Sequence record: MZ501090
Length of the DNA stretch: 51,474 nt
Source: Escherichia phage KarlJaspers
Strand: one strand, 5' to 3'
Of the stretch, positions 5,890 to 39,342 are shown in pieces; the first letter of the stretch is position 1; each line of letters begins with the position of its first letter. The translations under genes were made by a program, and so were the position numbers. Under the pieces are notes generated by a model. That model was not told where the DNA came from, made no database searches, and saw nothing but the letters and a program-made list of their open reading frames with translations.

Positions 5890-6324
5890 ATGAGTGATTA
5901 TTCAGTCATTGTTGGCGCTGAGTCGCCAGGGTGCATGGTCGATTCTTCAATAATGGTGATTAACGGATCTTTCGTGTGCGGAGATGAATTTATTGCGCCA
6001 GGTAAGATTGTGCGACTATCACATATAACAAATGGATACAAAATAGCAAGTGTTAATGGGGATCTTGTTATTGGCGTGGCAGTAAGGCCGCCGGACTCGT
6101 GCATATATGAGGAGTGTGATCCCGTCAATGTGGTTAGTAGAGGTAGTGTGTGGTGCTTAACTTCTGAGAGCGAAGCGCCAGAATATGGAGATAAAGTATT
6201 TGTAACGCAAGATGGAGATGCGGCATACAGTGAAGGCGACTTGCTGACTGGTTGGATCTTTACTGGCGAACATGTAAAGATTGATCATGATTCATATATT
6301 GTCGGGGTAAGCATTATCGCATAA
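5890..6324 (+). CDS. head-associated protein, paralog B (hypothetical)
   Basis: 144 aa; similar architecture to previous ORF (TGWIFTGE vs TNWIATGD). Confidence 0.4.
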   Translation: MSDYSVIVGAESPGCMVDSSIMVINGSFVCGDEFIAPGKIVRLSHITNGYKIASVNGDLVIGVAVRPPDSCIYEECDPVNVVSRGSVWCLTSESEAPEYGDKVFVTQDGDAAYSEGDLLTGWIFTGEHVKIDHDSYIVGVSIIA

Positions 6325-6342
6325 CACAAAATTATGTTGCAC

Positions 6343-6361
6343 GTTTAACAAAAAATGCTAT
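6343..6361 (-). promoter_or_regulatory. conserved intergenic motif copy, reverse orientation
   Basis: GTTTAACAAAAAATGCTAT on + strand, 45 nt upstream of capsid start. Confidence 0.5.
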
Positions 6362-6407
6362 CATTGTGGCGTTACATACTAACAGCCTTTATATATGGAG
6401 GAAGAAA

Positions 6408-7382
6408 ATGGAAAAAGAAAAATTTGATCAGCTAGATGCAGATATTGTTTCTAGTTATCTGGCTACTCGCGGCGTTAAAGGTGATGCGTCCGATATGGGT
6501 ATTTGGACCGCTCAAGAGCTACACAAGATTCGCTCTAATGCTTACGAGAAAGAGTATCCGGCAGGTTCGGCGCTTCGTGTGTTCCCTGTAACTAATGAGC
6601 TTTCTGATACTGATAAGACTTTTGAATACCAGACTTTTGATAAAGTTGGTTACGCAAAAATTATCGCTGATTATACCGACGACCTGCCAACTGTTGACGC
6701 TTTAATGTCCAGCGAGTTTGGTAAGGTGTTCCGACTTGGTAACGCGTTCTTGATCTCCATTGACGAAATCAAGGCTGGTCAGCGTACTGGTAAGAGCCTT
6801 TCCACTCGCAAGGCAAACGCAGCGCAAAACGCTCATGATCAGGAAGTTAACCGCCTGGTGTTTAAGGGTTCAAAGCCGCATAAGATTCTTTCGGTGTTTG
6901 AGCACCCTAACCTGACAAAGATCGTGTCAACTGGCTGGTTAAGTGCTGATGAAAACACTAAGTTCCCGCAGGCGGCATCTGATGAACTGGAAAAGGCTAT
7001 TGAAACAATTCAGACCATCACCAATGGTCAGCATCGAGCAACCAACATCCTGATTCCGCCGTCTATGCGCAAGGTTCTTTCCGTTCGAATGGAAAACACC
7101 ACTGAAAGTTATCTGGAATACTTCCAGAAACAAAACAGCGGAATCACCATTGACTCAATCGCAGAGCTTGAGGATATTGATGGCACAGGAACGAAAGGTT
7201 GCCTGGTATATGAGAAAGACCCGATGAACATGTCGATCGAAATTCCAGAAGCATTTAACATGCTTCCGGCGCAACCAAAAGATCTGCATTTCAAAGTTCC
7301 GTGCACTTCAAAATGTACTGGCCTGACGATTTACCGTCCGTTTACGCTAGTGCTTATTACTGGCTTGAAAAAATCAGGTTAA
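6408..7382 (+). CDS. major capsid protein (putative)
   Basis: ATG at 6408 with perfect GGAGG RBS (ORF track begins at upstream GTG 6366); about 324 aa; flanked by strong terminator. Confidence 0.55.
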   Translation: MEKEKFDQLDADIVSSYLATRGVKGDASDMGIWTAQELHKIRSNAYEKEYPAGSALRVFPVTNELSDTDKTFEYQTFDKVGYAKIIADYTDDLPTVDALMSSEFGKVFRLGNAFLISIDEIKAGQRTGKSLSTRKANAAQNAHDQEVNRLVFKGSKPHKILSVFEHPNLTKIVSTGWLSADENTKFPQAASDELEKAIETIQTITNGQHRATNILIPPSMRKVLSVRMENTTESYLEYFQKQNSGITIDSIAELEDIDGTGTKGCLVYEKDPMNMSIEIPEAFNMLPAQPKDLHFKVPCTSKCTGLTIYRPFTLVLITGLKKSG

Positions 7383-7394
7383 TCGTATAACATT

Positions 7395-7425
7395 GGGGAA
7401 TCCTTAACTGGATTCCCTTTTTTTA
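7395..7425 (+). terminator. rho-independent terminator
   Basis: GGGGAATCC-ttaact-GGATTCCC hairpin followed by TTTTTTTATT. Confidence 0.85.
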
Positions 7426-7439
7426 TTGGAGGTTATGAA

Positions 7440-7712
7440 ATGGCTAAAGAAAAAACTGTAACGCTAAAGGTTTCCGGCGTGTGCCTTATCATTGTTGATG
7501 GTGAGCATTATCATCCAGGCAAAGAGTTTGACGTAGAAGAATCAAAATTGAAAACAAGCGCGTTTGAATATCTAATTGCAAAAGGCGATCTGGAGGTTAA
7601 AGACAACTCCGCATTGAATGAAGAAATCAAACAGAGCGCAGCAAGCAAACGTAAAAAAGACCCGCGAGAGGGCAAGAGCAAAGCCGAACTTGAAGACGGC
7701 GGCATCTATTAA
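7440..7712 (+). CDS. hypothetical protein
   Basis: 90 aa ORF with GGAGG RBS; charged C-terminus. Confidence 0.45.
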   Translation: MAKEKTVTLKVSGVCLIIVDGEHYHPGKEFDVEESKLKTSAFEYLIAKGDLEVKDNSALNEEIKQSAASKRKKDPREGKSKAELEDGGIY

Positions 7713-7759
7713 TAAAGAGGGCGCTATAAGCGCCCTTTGTCATATCTGGAGGAAACACA

Positions 7760-8176
7760 ATGGTTGATGAATTTTTCACTGACGCAGAAATCACGCAGCA
7801 AATCGTGAAATTAGCTCCACCGATGAAACAGATTGATCCAGATTTAATGGTGGCATGGATTGATCTGGCAAAGGAATTTGTTTGCAAGAAGCGGTTTAAA
7901 GAATCATATCCAAAAGCGGTTGCCCTTTATACGTTGCACCTTATGACGCTTGACGGAGCTATGAAGCAAGAAGGGGAAAGCGTAGAGAGTTACTCGCGGC
8001 GCGTGGCGTCATTTTCCCTGACTGGTGAATTTAGTCAGACATTTGATCGCGTGTCAGGCGATTCAAGCGGAAAAGAGATTAGACAAACTCCGTGGGGCAA
8101 AATGTATGAGACGTTAAATAGAAAAAAAGGCGGTGGATTTGGCCTTGTGACTGGATTTCGGAGGCGCTGCAAATGA
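7760..8176 (+). CDS. head-tail connector/completion protein (putative)
   Basis: 138 aa ORF with GGAGG RBS between head and tail genes. Confidence 0.35.
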
Positions 8177-30422: not shown

Positions 30423-30441
30423 ATAGCATTTTTTGTTAAAC
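30423..30441 (+). promoter_or_regulatory. conserved intergenic motif copy upstream of helicase
   Basis: ATAGCATTTTTTGTTAAAC, then TATTAT about 19 nt downstream. Confidence 0.5.
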
Positions 30442-30498
30442 GATGATTTAATGATTGTGTATTATACACGCCAAATGGCATTACTCAAAGGTTTTAGA

Positions 30499-32538
30499 AT
30501 GATTCCAAACATTGAAAAGCAAATATCAACACTTGGTGAAACGGTAATTAAATCCATTCAGGAGCGATTCACTGTTGGCGAGATTGTGCCTTACCATTAC
30601 CAGTGCGTTGCATACGCTGAGATCGCAAAGCGTATGAAAAATTATGAGCATCCATTCTTTGTTAAAGCGTCCGTATCGGCTGGCAAAACATTGATGTTTG
30701 CAATGGTTGCTCACCAGTGCCGGAAAATGGGCTTGAAAATGATGGTCCTTGCTCGCCAGGCTGAGATTGTGGATCAGGATTCTGAAGAGATAACAAATCT
30801 TGGTGTGCCGAACTCCATCTATTGTGCAGGACTGAAGACAAAAAGCGCATACTTTCCGATCGTTGTTGGTTCTGAGGGAACTGTAGTTAATGGACTGTTT
30901 AAAGCGCTTGGCGACTATGTTCCGCACGTTATCGGGATTGACGAGTGTCACCAGGTGGATTGGGAAGACCTTGCCGACGCAATAGAGAAAGACGAATCAT
31001 TTTTACAAATGACAACGAAGAAAGGCGAAAAAGTACCAAATCCAGATTATGACATAACGAGCGATAACGAATGCGAAGAGTTCCTGATTGGTGAGGATGG
31101 CTTGCCAATGGAGGGAACAGGCCGCACACAATACACTGTCATTATCATGGAAATGATGCGCCGCTGCCGGAAAACATATGGTCATGAACTGCGCATATTT
31201 GGCATGACTGGATCGGAGTTTCGCGGCGTAGTCCCGATCCTGGTAGAAGACAAAAAACAGAAAGGATTCTGGCGTGAACAGGTTACTAATATTGACACCA
31301 ACTACCTGATCAAATTCGGTTCTGTTGTGCCAACAAATTTTGGCGACGTTGGCGATCTAGGGTATGACCTTTCAGAGTTTGAGGCATCCAGTGAGGATGG
31401 AGTTGCAGACTTTGACGCTAAAACGCTTCGCAGGATGGAACAAAAAATTCATGAAGAAGCGACCATGACAAAGCGCATCATGGCGAAAGTTCACGAGATC
31501 TGTAAAAACCGCAACGGCGTACTTGTGACATGTGCAGGAGAAAGGCATTGCAAAGAGGCAGCGGCAGCGTTGCCACCTGGAACTACTTACAGGATCATTA
31601 CTGGTAAGACTGGCGACAATCAGCGCAAGGAGTGGTTGAGGGAAGCATACGAAGGGAAGGTAAAATACATCTTCCAGGTTCAGGCGCTAACTACTGGCGT
31701 TAACGTGCCGTTTTGGGATACGTCTGTTATTCTGCGTAAGATTGGATCGCTAACTTTGCTGATTCAGCTTTTAGGACGCGGAATGCGACTTCTTAAGAAA
31801 TGGCATAAGGAACAAGGCTTCAAGAAAGATGATCACCTGGTTATGGATTTTTCAGGAACGATGGACGAGTTAGGTGAGCTTTATTTTGATCCGATACTGG
31901 AACAGGCGCAACATCAGAAGCGATTCAGGAACGGTAAAGATCCGAAGCCTTGTCCTGTTTGCGGAACTCTTAATAGCTATTATGCTCGTCGTTGTATGCA
32001 CGTAGACGAAAACGGCAACAGATGCGAGTGGTTCTTTAAATTCAGGACATGTGATGATCAGATTGACCCGCGCACTAAAAAGATTATTCAGCGCGGTTGT
32101 GGAACGAAAAATGATATTGCGGCCAGGGTATGCAGACATTGCGACATGTCATTGATTGACCCTAACGAGAAGTTAAGCGGAAAGCACTACACAAAAAACG
32201 ACTGGTTTCAGGTGCAATCTTTCTCGGTTGACATGACGAAAAACCAGAAAGGGATAATATTTAATTATGAGCTTTCCGATGGCATAGATACTTTCAGGGC
32301 GAGAGAGATATTTTTCCCTGAATCTGAGAGCCAAATTTGCCGCGCAAAATGGCGAAGCGTTGCTCTTAAGCACATACCAGATCGCCGTGTTGCTGGCATG
32401 GTGGCGAGCTATCGTAATGCACGAAAAATAATGCAATATGTTAATCACATTATGCCGCCATCGCGTGTTACTCACAGAAAGACTAGCAATGGCGAAGATA
32501 ATTTATACAAGAAGGACTTTAATTATGGCAATGACTGA
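30499..32538 (+). CDS. ATP-dependent DNA helicase (SF2, DEAH-like)
   Basis: Walker A SAGKT, IGIDECHQ motif II, C-terminal Cys4 zinc ribbon; start 30499 chosen because motif overlaps track start 30433. Confidence 0.75.
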   Translation: MIPNIEKQISTLGETVIKSIQERFTVGEIVPYHYQCVAYAEIAKRMKNYEHPFFVKASVSAGKTLMFAMVAHQCRKMGLKMMVLARQAEIVDQDSEEITNLGVPNSIYCAGLKTKSAYFPIVVGSEGTVVNGLFKALGDYVPHVIGIDECHQVDWEDLADAIEKDESFLQMTTKKGEKVPNPDYDITSDNECEEFLIGEDGLPMEGTGRTQYTVIIMEMMRRCRKTYGHELRIFGMTGSEFRGVVPILVEDKKQKGFWREQVTNIDTNYLIKFGSVVPTNFGDVGDLGYDLSEFEASSEDGVADFDAKTLRRMEQKIHEEATMTKRIMAKVHEICKNRNGVLVTCAGERHCKEAAAALPPGTTYRIITGKTGDNQRKEWLREAYEGKVKYIFQVQALTTGVNVPFWDTSVILRKIGSLTLLIQLLGRGMRLLKKWHKEQGFKKDDHLVMDFSGTMDELGELYFDPILEQAQHQKRFRNGKDPKPCPVCGTLNSYYARRCMHVDENGNRCEWFFKFRTCDDQIDPRTKKIIQRGCGTKNDIAARVCRHCDMSLIDPNEKLSGKHYTKNDWFQVQSFSVDMTKNQKGIIFNYELSDGIDTFRAREIFFPESESQICRAKWRSVALKHIPDRRVAGMVASYRNARKIMQYVNHIMPPSRVTHRKTSNGEDNLYKKDFNYGND

Positions 32539-32944
32539 TAAAGGCGATTATCTTGAGTTTTACGAAAGAGATCCGACGGATACGCTAAAAGAGGAATCAC
32601 ACCAGATTGGGGCGTTTCAATGGTTAACTTATGCTCATCCTGAATTGCTGGCATGGCATACGAAAAACGAGGGCGACAAGGGAATCGCCACAGCAATGAT
32701 GGATCAGCAAGCTGGACTTGTTAAGGGAGTAAGTGATTTTATCATCCTGATTGGATTAAAAGGCCGTTACCCGTTCGCGGCAATAGAGATGAAGCGCGTC
32801 AATAAGTCCGGCAAGGGGAAGGCTTCACCAGTCAGCAAGGAGCAAAAAGCCTTCTTGCGCCGCGTGCGTGAGCTTGGCGGATTCGCTGCCGTAACATACG
32901 GATATAAGCAATTCATGATCGCGGTAGAATACATGATGAAATAG
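32525..32944 (+). CDS. VRR-NUC domain nuclease
   Basis: GVSDFIILIGL...AIEMKR...KEQKAFL typical VRR-NUC signature; ATG 32525 with AAGGA RBS. Confidence 0.65.
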   Translation: MAMTDKGDYLEFYERDPTDTLKEESHQIGAFQWLTYAHPELLAWHTKNEGDKGIATAMMDQQAGLVKGVSDFIILIGLKGRYPFAAIEMKRVNKSGKGKASPVSKEQKAFLRRVRELGGFAAVTYGYKQFMIAVEYMMK

Positions 32945-33018: not shown

Positions 33019-33720
33019 ATGAGTAAAGAAACTGAAGTGACATTTGAACAAATAGAACGAGAAACATTCATTGGCAATGCTCTTGCTACTGGAGGCCATT
33101 ACCAGGCTGTTAAACCAAATCAATATTTCAAAGTGACTGGCAACCGCTATAACGGCAGCAATACGCCTGACATTGTGCGCGATTTGTGGTCTACGCCGTA
33201 TGAACTTGTCGCATGGATGGAAAGCGAATACGGTGATTATGACATCGACGCGGCGGCAAGCAAAGAAAATGCTGTATGTGAAAAATTCTACAGCAAGGAA
33301 ACAAATTGCTTAAAGCGTTGGTGGGGTAGTAACAAGCATATATGGCTGAATCCGCCGTACAGCAATATAACGCCTTTCGTTAAGAAAGCGATTGAGCAAA
33401 TGGAGCACAATAACCAGATCGACATTCTGTTACCTTGCGACACATCAACAGGATGGTTTTATGAAGCGCAGCAGCGCGCAGCGGAAATCATCTGGATCAC
33501 TGGCGAAGTTTACCAGGAGGACGGAACAGAATATTCCCGCACAGGACGCCTTGCGTTTACCTCTGCTCTTACAGGTAAACCAGTACAGGGAAACAACAAA
33601 GGAAGCGTTATTTTCATCATGCGCGAACTTAAAGAAGGTGAGCAGCAGAAAACTCGATACGTTAAAATCAGCGACATTTGCCCTTCGGTGGCAGACCGTC
33701 GCGCACGGAAACGGAGCTAA
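33019..33720 (+). CDS. dam: DNA N6-adenine methyltransferase (phage Dam-type)
   Basis: NPPY catalytic motif (HIWLNPPYSN); 233 aa. Confidence 0.8.
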   Translation: MSKETEVTFEQIERETFIGNALATGGHYQAVKPNQYFKVTGNRYNGSNTPDIVRDLWSTPYELVAWMESEYGDYDIDAAASKENAVCEKFYSKETNCLKRWWGSNKHIWLNPPYSNITPFVKKAIEQMEHNNQIDILLPCDTSTGWFYEAQQRAAEIIWITGEVYQEDGTEYSRTGRLAFTSALTGKPVQGNNKGSVIFIMRELKEGEQQKTRYVKISDICPSVADRRARKRS

Positions 33721-34001: not shown

Positions 34002-34057
34002 GCCCGACCTTGTGTCGGGCATAATTATTTCATCAAAACGAACAAGAGGAAAACAAA

Positions 34058-34469: not shown

Positions 34470-34567
34470 GGATTATTATCATGTGGCGTTTGTTACTTTT
34501 GCCCTTACCTGTTATGATGGCGATCTCTATTGTATACGTTGTCATAATGAGATAAGGAGAATTTTTG

Positions 34568-35683
34568 ATGAAGCAAATCAAAATCACAGATGAACAATTT
34601 ATCAATGAGCGCAAGCAGGGAAAGACATATAAGCAGATCGCTAATGAGTATGGCATGAACGTTCGCAGCATTGAGCGCCGCGCGGCACGATTAGCAAAGC
34701 AAGGTAAAGTTACAACCATCGGATCGCCTGGTTTTGGTGTTACTGGAGAATCAAAGCTAATTGATAAAGATGGCAATGTGGTTATGACATGGATTAAGAC
34801 AAGTAAGGACCGCGAACAGCTAGAAGCATTAATGCAGGCCGCTATTGATGCATTTAGCGAAGAAGTCCCTCGACTTGATCCGCAGCCAGAATCACAAAAG
34901 GATTATAGCGAGACGTTATCACTGTATCCGATCTTTGATATGCACTTGGGCGCAATGGCGCATAAGCATGAATGCGGCGAGAACTGGGATACAGCAACAG
35001 CAGAGCGCGTAATGAATAATTTCATTGATTATTCCATCCAGTGCGCGCCGGATAGCGAAAATGCTGTTTTGCTGATTGGTGGTGACATGCTGCATAGTGA
35101 CGGCCTGGAAGCGGTGACACCTGCAAGCGGTCACGTATTGGATCAAGATAGTCGATACGCAAAACTTGTTTATGTTGCCATCCGGTCAGTGCGTAGAGCA
35201 ATTACAAAGCTGTTATCAAAACACAAAAACGTCGAGATTCAGATCATTGAAGGCAACCACGACCAAAGCGGCATGATCTGGTTGCGCGCAGCAATGGCGG
35301 CAGCATATGAGAATGAGCCACGAGTGCATGTTGATGTGTCTCCGCGAGTAGTTCATCACACACAATATGGCAAAACATTCCTGGCATACCATCACGGGCA
35401 CACTATCCGCAAGCCTGAAACATTGCTCATGATGTGCGCAGCAGACTGGCGCGAAGACTTCGGCAATTCAAAAATGATGTATGCTCACGTAGGGCATTGG
35501 CATCATCAAACAGTAACCGAAACAAGCCTGGGAATTGTTGAAGTGCATAGCACTATGGCGGCAAAAGATGCATATGCGGCGCGCGGTGGATGGCGTTCTC
35601 GCCGCCGTGCGGCTGTTATTGTTTATGATAAAGAATACGGAGAAGTGGGGCGATTTATGCATTATCCAGAAATTGCTGGTTGA
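34568..35683 (+). CDS. calcineurin-like metallophosphoesterase with N-terminal HTH-like region
   Basis: DMHLG, GGDMLH, GNHD, HHGH, GHWHH motifs; N-terminal KTYKQIANEYGMNVRSIERR helix-turn-helix-like. Confidence 0.6.
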   Translation: MKQIKITDEQFINERKQGKTYKQIANEYGMNVRSIERRAARLAKQGKVTTIGSPGFGVTGESKLIDKDGNVVMTWIKTSKDREQLEALMQAAIDAFSEEVPRLDPQPESQKDYSETLSLYPIFDMHLGAMAHKHECGENWDTATAERVMNNFIDYSIQCAPDSENAVLLIGGDMLHSDGLEAVTPASGHVLDQDSRYAKLVYVAIRSVRRAITKLLSKHKNVEIQIIEGNHDQSGMIWLRAAMAAAYENEPRVHVDVSPRVVHHTQYGKTFLAYHHGHTIRKPETLLMMCAADWREDFGNSKMMYAHVGHWHHQTVTETSLGIVEVHSTMAAKDAYAARGGWRSRRRAAVIVYDKEYGEVGRFMHYPEIAG

Positions 35684-35726: not shown

Positions 35727-35756
35727 GGGCGTGGCATTTTGCTTCGCCCTTTTTTT
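35727..35756 (+). terminator. rho-independent terminator
   Basis: GGGCG-13 nt loop-CGCCC hairpin followed by TTTTTTT. Confidence 0.65.
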
Positions 35757-35829
35757 ATTCCTTTTTGTGCGTTCAATGGTTAGGATACAAACAATTAATT
35801 GTTGACTTTTATATACAGGAGATCTAATC

Positions 35830-36045
35830 ATGAAAGATTTTTTAAACGCTGCAACTTCCGGCACTGGCGGCGCGTCAATCACTGGCGCGGTAACTGGTCA
35901 AACAACTATTGCAATAGCCAGCTTCGTTTTGATGGCTGCATTTGGTATGTGGGGCGCTTATCTTCGCTGGCGTGATAGTAAGGCGCTACGTGACGCGCTT
36001 GAATGCGGTGATATTAAGAAAGCTATTGAGATCAGAGGGAAATAA
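35830..36045 (+). CDS. holin (putative)
   Basis: 71 aa; one clear TM segment, charged C-terminus; immediately upstream of endolysin. Confidence 0.55.
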
Positions 36046-36533
36046 TGAGTATAAAACAAAGAGTGACCGCTGCGGCTTTTGGCGTTGCTCTTGCCCTTAC
36101 TTCTCCGCTACTGGAGGAAATAGAAGGAGTAAAACATAAGCCGTACAAAGATATTGCTGGGATATGGACGGTTTGCGCCGGAATAACTGGACCTGACGTA
36201 ATACAAGGCAAAACGTACACACAAAGAGAGTGCGATGCACTACTGGCAAAGCATATCAAGATCGCAAAGGATGAAGTTGATAAGCGTGTAAAGGTTGACA
36301 TTCCTGATACAATGCGCGCAGCAATGTATTCATTCACATACAATGCTGGAACTGGAGCTTTTAGAAATTCAACCATGCTTAAGCTGATTAATAACGGTCG
36401 TTATATGGAAGCGTGCAATCAGTTATGGCGATGGACAAAATACACCAATCCAAAAACAGGAAAGAAAGAAACGTCTAAAGGACTGCGCAACCGCCGCGCG
36501 GTGGAATTTAAATATTGCATTAAGGATCTGTAA
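36045..36533 (+). CDS. SAR endolysin (T4-lysozyme-like muramidase)
   Basis: N-terminal signal-anchor-release helix; catalytic E-D-T spacing ([23 protein letters not shown]). Confidence 0.85.
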
Positions 36534-36535
36534 TC

Positions 36536-36934
36536 ATGAGAAAGTTATCAGCAATCGCGATCGCTGTTATTTTGTCTGGATGTTCAAGCGTTACGCCACT
36601 GACCGGATTAATCGGTAGTAAGCCGGAAATCACAGCACAGGCAGGAGCGGAGAACGTAAAGCAGACCGTTGGCGTTACCGCAAAGCAGGACACCAGCACA
36701 AAACAGGAAACTACAATAAAGGAATCTGCGGTTGATAAGGTGGACACTTCCAGCAAGAAGGATTTCACTACGTCAACCATTCAGGCTAACACCATCAAGG
36801 CTGATAAAATCCAGGTTGTGCAGGGTGAGCAAAGTAAGTGGTACGATCCTATAATCTATTGCGCTGCAATTTTCAGTGGTCTTTTGTCAATGCTTTACTT
36901 TTCCTACCGCAAAGGCAACAAAAAGGAGGCTTAA
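36536..36934 (+). CDS. unimolecular spanin (lipoprotein with C-terminal TM)
   Basis: Lipobox ILSGCSS at N-terminus plus C-terminal TM helix; architecture as described for T1 gp11. Confidence 0.7.
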   Translation: MRKLSAIAIAVILSGCSSVTPLTGLIGSKPEITAQAGAENVKQTVGVTAKQDTSTKQETTIKESAVDKVDTSSKKDFTTSTIQANTIKADKIQVVQGEQSKWYDPIIYCAAIFSGLLSMLYFSYRKGNKKEA

Positions 36935-36950
36935 CGCCTCCTTTGTTTTA
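36924..36950. terminator. bidirectional terminator-like hairpin between convergent genes
   Basis: AGGAGGC-ttaac-GCCTCCT hairpin with T-rich flanks on both strands. Confidence 0.45.
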
Positions 36951-37758: not shown

Positions 37759-39342
37759 TTACCCCAGCAATGTTGGATTTACGAAAACAACGCCATTAAT
37801 CACACAAATATAATTTCTTTCCTCAAGCATCGGAAGCAGTTGCGTTTCCATGCGCTTCATTACGCCAGCCTGACCAACAAACGGCTTAACTTTTCGTGCA
37901 GCCTCATATATGGCGCGAACATTCAAGATTCCCTTATTAGCCTTTCCGTGTCGAGTGATGATCTCGATTAGTTTACCCATTTCAGCATCATCACCAGCGT
38001 AGCCAGAAGCGTTGGCGGCGCTAATGTATGTTTTGCTCAACTCGCTAAACATCAACAATGCTTCCTGAACGGTTTCAACCTCAATTTCTTTCGACTTCTG
38101 AGGGTATCCACCAGGATTAAACCAGTTGCGGATAGTGTGCAAAACTGAAGCAATCCTGATCACCTGCTTATCCATTTTGCCAAGCGCGCCGCGCAGCATT
38201 GTATGCGAATACTTTCCGCCATCGGCAAGGTGCGGTTCCATCTCCTGACGAGCCATGTTAAGAACTCGCATTGCTGATTTGCTGATCTTAAGCTGGATGT
38301 TTGATTCGCTCATTATGTTATGGATCAGCTTGAAATATTGGCTTTTCAGTTCCCCGTCAACAGGTTCATAAGTAGAATCACCGTTATCATCAACAAACTT
38401 TCTACGGCCTAAAAATGATTCCTCACGCACAAGCAAATAACGCTCACTTACACCGATACCGCGCGATCCTGCATCCATGATGGCATTGATTGTTTCATCC
38501 TGGGCAATTACCGCCATACAGCCAAGAGCTTTAAAACTCATATTGTTGTCAGCGTTTGCACGAGCTATAGAAACATGACCATGATCCCAGGCTTTTAATA
38601 CAAGTTCGCTGTTGGTTTTACGTTCGCTATTGGCATATGTCAGACCTAAAAGGCTGTTAATACTCGTTGCCTCGTCTGAAATTACAGCAAAGTTTCCCTG
38701 GCGGTTGTTGATTCTTGCAAGTCCTTCCGGCGTGGTGTCGGAGACAGGGAAAACAATGTCACACATCTTTTCCAGTTTTTCTTCCAGATCTTCTTTCTCC
38801 TGGTATAGCGATTCCATATCAGCGCCGGAACGCTCGCTTTTCATCTCTTTTGCAAGACCTGCCAACTTTGCCTGAATCTTTTTTCTTTCCTTCTTTCGCT
38901 GATCGTTAATTCTTTCCACTTCTGCAACCATTGGAGCAAGTGCCAGGCTGTTAACGGCAGACTTACCAGTTGAAGGAGGCTGGCTTGTAACAACGTACAG
39001 AGCGGTTGGTTGATCCGTTCCGTGATACTCAACCGTGAAGCGTCCAAGCATTGCAGCAGACACGCAGCCGATAAAATGCATATATGCCGATGATTCAGGG
39101 AATTGAACAGATCGAGCAATGTTGCGCGCCAACTTTCCAACAACATCAACATCATTGCCAAGAGAAATTATAGGGTAGCGATCGTTTCCGTTATTAACAT
39201 CATTAACCTCACCCCAAAAGCTGGACGATTGACGGTATCCGTTTGCCTGAATGGACACGCGCACCGGAGACAATCCTTGTGCATCAGCTAATTCGATAAT
39301 TTGTTTTGGTGTTAGTTTATTGGTTTCAAACGAAAAATTCAT
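37759..39342 (-). CDS. P-loop protein, DUF3987-like (putative replication/primase-associated)
   Basis: 527 aa; Walker A-like SQPPSTGKSA; family assignment from memory, unverified. Confidence 0.4.
   Translation of the reverse strand: MNFSFETNKLTPKQIIELADAQGLSPVRVSIQANGYRQSSSFWGEVNDVNNGNDRYPIISLGNDVDVVGKLARNIARSVQFPESSAYMHFIGCVSAAMLGRFTVEYHGTDQPTALYVVTSQPPSTGKSAVNSLALAPMVAEVERINDQRKKERKKIQAKLAGLAKEMKSERSGADMESLYQEKEDLEEKLEKMCDIVFPVSDTTPEGLARINNRQGNFAVISDEATSINSLLGLTYANSERKTNSELVLKAWDHGHVSIARANADNNMSFKALGCMAVIAQDETINAIMDAGSRGIGVSERYLLVREESFLGRRKFVDDNGDSTYEPVDGELKSQYFKLIHNIMSESNIQLKISKSAMRVLNMARQEMEPHLADGGKYSHTMLRGALGKMDKQVIRIASVLHTIRNWFNPGGYPQKSKEIEVETVQEALLMFSELSKTYISAANASGYAGDDAEMGKLIEIITRHGKANKGILNVRAIYEAARKVKPFVGQAGVMKRMETQLLPMLEERNYICVINGVVFVNPTLLG

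Follow-up and report, generated by a model that had tools for sequence, protein, structure and literature searches.

The gene at positions 34568..35683 (+ strand) of Escherichia phage KarlJaspers (MZ501090; the whole 51,474-nt record is the window analysed here) encodes a metallophosphoesterase preceded by a helix-turn-helix (HTH), which on balance is probably a stand-alone, HTH-tethered DNA nuclease or phosphodiesterase of phage DNA metabolism. The DNA substrate and the biological role are what we infer, and the basis for this reading, established here, is an intact two-metal site, the HTH itself, the identity of the fold neighbours, the position in the operon and the finding that the gene has no constant partner.

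That the gene is real and intact is confirmed. The open reading frame (34565/34568..35683, 371 codons) has its ATG at 34568 and its TGA at 35681-35683, which gives a product of 371 aa and 41.9 kDa, and a strong Shine-Dalgarno sequence, AAGGAG (34554..34559, + strand), can be read directly 8 nt upstream of the start. The antisense reading frames over the gene are all at most 115 aa long and have no counterpart among the annotated genes of close relatives. The protein is ca 99% identical to entries from Fulano1, damhaus and aaroes, which GenBank names "putative phosphoesterase" or "DNA repair exonuclease", and it matches PHROG 704 ("DNA repair exonuclease") with an E-value of 1.4e-150, residues 5-368 covering profile positions 3-387 of 390. 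With this full-length match and thousands of homologues, the observation is far beyond chance. The surrounding DNA is ca 97% identical to that of the Hanrivervirus phages (Drexlerviridae, Tempevirinae) pSf-1, phiE31-2 and Fulano1, and KarlJaspers is therefore a T1-like virulent coliphage genome of the Hanrivervirus type.

The catalytic domain comprises residues 116-365 (34913..35662, + strand) and belongs to the calcineurin-like metallophosphoesterases (MPEs), of the kind seen in Mre11, SbcD and the DP1 subunit of PolD. The original prediction had stated that all hallmark motifs of this superfamily are present, and the five motifs were indeed found intact in the sequence and in the family alignment. 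Motif I is D124-M-H126, which supplies metal ligands (34937..34945), motif II is G172-D173-M-L-H176, of the Mre11-type GDxxH form (35081..35095), motif III is the GNHD of residues 229-232 (35252..35263), motif IV is H276-G-H278 (35393..35401) and motif V is G309-H310-W-H312 (35492..35503), all on the + strand. In an alignment of 39 cluster representatives with 31-56% identity, D124, H126, D173, H176, N230, H231, H276, G309 and H312 are invariant, and H310 and D232 are conserved in at least 90% of the sequences. Because every catalytic residue is strictly conserved over thousands of clusters, the putative enzyme core is almost certainly active. Five further invariant residues, E135, T184, L191, D192 and R196, are specific to the family. 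Four of them (T184, L191, D192 and R196) are located in a family-specific loop, SDGLEAVTPASGHVLDQDSR (residues 177-196, 35096..35155, + strand, pLDDT 87-91), which probably forms a substrate-binding lid. The Pfam Metallophos model PF00149 scores below its gathering cut-off (15.3 bits versus 21.5, E 0.029), 9 of the 39 relatives match it at E ≤0.01, and NCBIfam gives motif matches below threshold only. Judged by its sequences, the family is a divergent branch of the calcineurin-like superfamily.

A first AlphaFold model, based on a shallow alignment of 22 sequences with 60-89% identity, was poor (pLDDT 69.5), and it was replaced by a model from the diverse 39-sequence alignment, with a pLDDT of 89.2. 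Its core, residues 116-365, is an alpha/beta sandwich with the MPE beta-sandwich fold. The structural comparison that the original prediction had proposed places this model nearest to PolD DP1 and Mre11/SbcD. Namely, the highest score, 15.8, is obtained for the proofreading exonuclease PolD DP1, followed by T. maritima Mre11 (14.5), S. aureus SbcD (14.4), MJ0936 (14.1), LpxH (13.5), several other Mre11 proteins (ca 13) and Rv0805 (12.7), while the protein phosphatase PP5 scores far lower, at a poor 8.9. Foldseek likewise ranks Mre11 and DP1 at the top (E ca 1e-7). When the family profile was compared with all PDB sequences, the only metallophosphoesterases touched were T. maritima Mre11 (E 0.56) and the Pseudomonas putida nuclease MPE (E 1.7), with motifs I, II (lGDFlH against TGDLLH), III and V aligned. 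Taken by themselves these matches lack significance, but they are in line with the fold comparison. A PDB search with the single KarlJaspers sequence gave no relevant match. The PPP signatures GDxHG, GDxVDRG and GNHE are absent, and no PPP-type protein phosphatase was matched by the family profile among the PDB sequences. The suggestion that the protein could be either a DNA-targeted nuclease or phosphodiesterase or a protein phosphatase is thus supported in its first half, by the Mre11/DP1-like fold, and not in its second.

An HTH-like region of about 60 residues had been predicted at the N-terminus. The HTH is there, at residues 8-44 (34589..34699, + strand), whereas the extension ahead of the MPE core is considerably longer, about 115 residues. 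In the model the HTH consists of three helices (8-16, 21-28 and 32-44; pLDDT 84-92), and residues 1-50 contain 12 K/R and 5 D/E, with a pI of 10.3, such that this part of the protein is predicted to be a basic DNA-binding module. The Pfam match on the KarlJaspers protein itself is below threshold (HTH_28, E 0.0026), while relatives match Sigma70_r4_2 (1.5e-9) and GerE (2.4e-8). Between the HTH and the catalytic domain the model has a linker (34733..34864, + strand, pLDDT 81-88) made of a beta-hairpin (residues 56-80) and a helix (82-99), in which G69 is invariant across the family and W75 is conserved in at least 90% of its members. The basic HTH is present in nearly all family members.

The family is not new; it occurs widely in phages and has been annotated before. 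When 1.84 billion cluster representatives (50%-identity clusters) were scanned exhaustively with HMMER, 4,624 relatives were found at E ≤1e-3, of which 1,040 reached E ≤1e-30. Their length is 360-480 aa in nearly all cases, which leaves room for the N-terminal extension, and the architecture of HTH, linker and MPE is kept throughout. By tblastn the gene is found in 2,037 of 50,697 phage records (ca 4%), including T1 (56.6% identity), Kagunavirus, Jerseyvirus, the N4-like DFL12phi1, Campylobacter myoviruses, and phages of Rhodobacter, Vibrio, Ruegeria and Flavobacterium. Homologues with ca 65% identity are found in E. coli prophages. In BFVD, the family is split into two or three short adjacent pieces (ca 100-300 aa) in Roseobacter phage RDJL Phi 1, Salmonella phage 36, Jk06 and phiJLA23, which suggests frameshifts, sequencing errors or interruption by a mobile HNH gene. 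A homing or HNH endonuclease gene lies immediately downstream of the family gene in T1 and Jerseyvirus.

As to the position in the genome, it had been proposed that a place between the methylase and the lysis genes gives no obvious functional context. The position was correctly described. In KarlJaspers the gene is the last cistron of a block with helicase (30433-32538), VRR-NUC (32438-32944) and Dam methyltransferase (33019-33720) genes, three or four small reading frames lying between the last of these and the HTH-metallophosphoesterase gene. A primase gene on the - strand precedes the helicase in the gene order, and T1 has the same order around the gene. Downstream follow the holin (35830-36045), lysozyme (36045-36533) and spanin (36536-36934) genes. 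Between the phosphoesterase and holin genes there is an intrinsic terminator (35727..35756, + strand), formed by a stem-loop at 35727-35749 and a run of seven T, with a folding energy of -14.6 kcal/mol and a z-score of -3.7; none of 200 shuffled sequences was as stable. A sigma-70-like promoter-like site follows at 35802-35831, with its -10 element abutting the holin start codon. It follows that the gene is the end of the replication/modification block and not the start of the lysis cassette, which looks like a separate transcription unit.

Some other features of this region can be mentioned. A GC-rich terminator-like hairpin, GCCCGAC...GTCGGGC, is located at 34002-34020, downstream of the Dam gene and inside the same block, and another, with a 9-bp stem, at 36922-36944, after the spanin gene, where the transcription of the two strands converges. 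The helicase and VRR-NUC reading frames overlap by about 100 nt as listed; in relatives the VRR-NUC gene is annotated with a later start, is 420 nt long and shares only a few bases with the helicase stop, which suggests translational coupling. On the - strand, 37759-39342 encodes a second replication protein of 527 aa, called "helicase" in relatives and assigned to DUF3987 (the D5-type primase/helicase N-terminal region) in T1. The lysis cassette is therefore flanked by two helicase-like genes, one on each strand.

In other phages the neighbourhood centres broadly on the replication and recombination of DNA and on nucleotide metabolism. In E. coli lambdoid prophages and in phage mEp013, the gene has an O-like initiator (with an antirepressor-like gene) on one side and a DnaB-type helicase on the other, with NinB downstream and Erf and SSB across the repressor. 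In DFL12phi1 it comes after dCTP deaminase, a MazG-like protein and thymidylate synthase, in Rhodobacter phage RcCWillis after the lysis genes, facing a DNA methylase and ThyX, and on other contigs a dUTPase or dNMP kinase is near. For a wider survey, reading frames were called in 80 IMG/VR loci and the neighbours clustered, leaving 47 loci after dereplication. The commonest neighbour clusters are lysozyme, DUF3310, YbcO, antiterminator Q, spanins, terminase and DnaB, which together are nin-like. The largest cluster occurs in at most 8 of the 47 loci and there is thus no constant partner; no obligate partner gene emerged from this clustering. A Rad50/SbcC-like ATPase was found neither in these 47 neighbourhoods nor in the annotated genome of the KarlJaspers phage type.

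Taken as a DNA nuclease or phosphodiesterase, the protein would work as follows. A metal-dependent phosphodiesterase of the Mre11/SbcD/PolD-DP1 structural type, probably using Mn2+ or Mg2+, would act on DNA, and the basic three-helix HTH would, together with the hairpin-helix linker, hold the catalytic domain on double-stranded DNA. The protein would be made together with the phage replication and recombination genes, and would most likely trim or cut DNA ends or intermediates in recombination-dependent replication, and/or break down host DNA for reuse of its nucleotides.

It is important to point out how this differs from the known enzymes of the same structural type. With Mre11 and SbcD the protein shares motif II, GDxxH with its conserved histidine, and the fold of the nuclease domain, but the sequence identity is 13-18%, and the N-terminal HTH is not found in them. 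Mre11, SbcD and T4 gp47 have a Rad50/SbcC ATPase as partner, which is missing in KarlJaspers and beside the relatives. Mre11 and SbcD also have a capping domain and a Rad50-binding C-terminus, while here only about 55 residues follow motif V, and these complete the core sandwich. The domain most similar in structure to the model is the PDE domain of DP1, the archaeal 3'-5' proofreading exonuclease. DP1 has an OB fold and acts together with the polymerase subunit DP2, whereas the N-terminus here is an HTH and a hairpin. No DNA polymerase gene is annotated in the relatives of KarlJaspers, and T1 and TLS are reported to be without one (PMC11447400). The P. putida nuclease MPE/PdeM, a ligase-associated ssDNA endonuclease, differs in size and architecture; the score is 19.9 bits against a family threshold of 150, and the KarlJaspers family has no ligase/Lhr context.

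For the T1-like phages a more specific role can be considered. T1 and TLS break down the host genome and recycle its nucleotides, and the gene products responsible are described as not yet identified (PMC11447400). T1 mutants with a defect in this breakdown are reported to be better transducers (Roberts & Drexler 1981, cited in PMC11447400). In T5, A1 was reported to be necessary and sufficient for degradation of the host chromosome, and it is a predicted metallophosphatase resembling double-strand-break-repair nucleases and polymerase proofreading subunits; A1 and the DNA-binding A2 are both required for the second-step transfer of T5 DNA, and A2 is dispensable for degradation (2026 preprint). 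It is a tentative idea, more likely wrong than right, that the HTH-phosphoesterase destroys the host chromosome in T1-like phages, as a single-chain counterpart of A1 (the nuclease) and A2 (the DNA binding). Alternatively, it may process recombination and replication intermediates in these phages. The likeness to A1 (PHROG 1745) is that both are phage metallophosphatases that stand alone and share their structural neighbours, and that the context is similar, A1-like genes being found near DNA methyltransferase, ThyX and MazG-like genes. A1 differs in having 556 aa and a 300-residue N-terminal region, and among A1-like proteins an N-terminal HTH was seen as one weak Pfam match only. Homology was rejected, as there are no reciprocal matches between PHROG 704 and 1745 and hhalign aligns motif III only, with 16-19% probability (16% with a five-member A1 alignment). 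Nor did hhalign find any similarity between the HTH and A2. The best reading would accordingly be that of a functional analogue, not a relative, of A1. Since the family is frequent in temperate phages, wholesale host destruction is unlikely as its general role.

The gene is nevertheless a tractable candidate for the enzyme of host-chromosome degradation in T1 and TLS. If it does have this role, the same family would provide a partner-free Mre11-like nuclease in thousands of virulent and temperate phages, and the HTH would either determine which DNA is cut or link the enzyme to the machinery of replication or transcription. Should it rather be a nuclease of recombination or replication, one would have a Mre11-type active site working without Rad50, with the HTH borrowed as a DNA clamp. 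A literature search found no experiments on the family, and papers on the Stx-phage replication region and on CRISPRi-ART do not mention it.

A1-like metallophosphatases themselves extend beyond Demerecviridae, with matches in 1,135 phage records. In Caulobacter phage CcrPW (1492-5939, locus coordinates), for example, an A1-like gene lies between two DNA methyltransferase genes, next to DNA polymerase I, and others lie beside ThyX or MazG-like genes, in contexts that resemble those of the HTH-phosphoesterase family.

Among the alternatives to a DNA nuclease, the one that survives best, although unlikely, is a phosphodiesterase for nucleotides or small molecules, serving nucleotide-pool control or anti-defence, with an HTH that only autoregulates or anchors. 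Candidate substrates would be cyclic or linear (oligo)nucleotide immune signals, 2',3'-cNMP, Ap4A or dNTP-related compounds. This is difficult to reconcile with a predicted DNA-binding HTH that is conserved in nearly all members, with a motif II whose invariant histidine is of the Mre11 type, and with top fold matches that are nucleases. No family of the PADLOC anti-phage defence models was matched at E up to 1, which also argues against it. The phage enzymes known to destroy immune signals, Acb1 and Apyc1, have different folds, and this counts against it as well. The literature on Metis and PUA-Cal-HAD concerns host defence metallophosphatases and not the present family.

A less probable option is an end-healing phosphoesterase for RNA or DNA (a 2',3'-cyclic phosphodiesterase or 3'-phosphatase). 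Its partner would be a split PNKP, made up of a HAD 3'-phosphatase and a P-loop kinase, and the two would repair nucleic acids that host defence nucleases have cut, in the manner of T4 Pnk and Clostridium thermocellum Pnkp. The idea derives from Kagunavirus K1G, where the gene overlaps a HAD_PNKP 3'-phosphatase gene (E 6.7e-20) that is followed by a P-loop kinase gene, all in one operon, and from a T7-like contig, where the gene is between endonuclease VII and a HAD_PNKP phosphatase, directly ahead of the latter, with a dGTP diphosphohydrolase-like gene after it. Orthologues of both K1G partners also occur elsewhere in the KarlJaspers phage type, with 56% and 51% identity. Such partners are, however, nearby in only 2-3 of the 80 IMG/VR loci, and the PNKP association was rejected as a general feature, being lineage-restricted. 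In C. thermocellum Pnkp, end healing is done by a lambda-phosphatase-like module, a class that scores poorly in the structural comparison, and the HTH suggests duplex DNA and not tRNA as the substrate; no ligase is associated.

The K1G genes form a reverse-oriented cassette (6001-8167, locus coordinates) inserted in the tail gene module, with an imm-like gene, the HTH-phosphoesterase, the PNKP-type HAD 3'-phosphatase and the P-loop kinase. The annotated "polynucleotide kinase" of T1-like and K1G phages corresponds to the phosphatase half of T4 Pnk only, the kinase being a separate gene.

It is very doubtful that the protein acts chiefly in transcription regulation (of middle or late genes, for instance), with a sigma-region-4/LuxR-like HTH doing the work and the phosphoesterase being only a sensor or scaffold. 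The Sigma70_r4_2 and GerE matches of the relatives fit this view, as do some records named "transcriptional regulator", a location that in several phages is directly ahead of lysis or late genes, and the reported binding of T5 A1 to RNA polymerase (2026 preprint). The strict conservation of the catalytic residues over thousands of clusters argues against it, and a repeat search around the gene gave only chance-level two-copy matches, with no operator-like repeats.

Finally, it is highly improbable that we are dealing with a lambda-type protein phosphatase (Ser/Thr/Tyr) whose targets are host or phage proteins: the protein is of the same superfamily, temperate relatives have the gene in a nin-like region with YbcO, NinB, antiterminator Q and lysis genes, which is where lambda carries NinI, and the Jerseyvirus protein is named "putative serine/threonine protein phosphatase" in GenBank, but the PPP signatures are absent, the structural score is poor, no PPP-type sequence was matched and there is an HTH here.

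The DNA nuclease or phosphodiesterase thus being the preferred reading, several database names lack support, namely "Ser/Thr phosphatase", "DNA polymerase II small subunit", "proof-reading exonuclease" and "transcriptional regulator"; in the re-annotation of TLS, the orthologue is called "proof-reading exonuclease (gp66)" (PMC11447400). We suggest "HTH-domain metallophosphoesterase, Mre11/DP1-like" as a replacement.

The host labels of some records also look doubtful. About 20 "Campylobacter phage" records (e.g. MG065643.1, "Campylobacter phage E6") carry T1-like coliphage sequence, and the same holds for the record "Streptococcus phage MBBL140". The phosphoesterases of E6 and MBBL140 are 95% and 78% identical to the KarlJaspers protein, respectively, and the genomes or contigs are ca 49-50 kb long.
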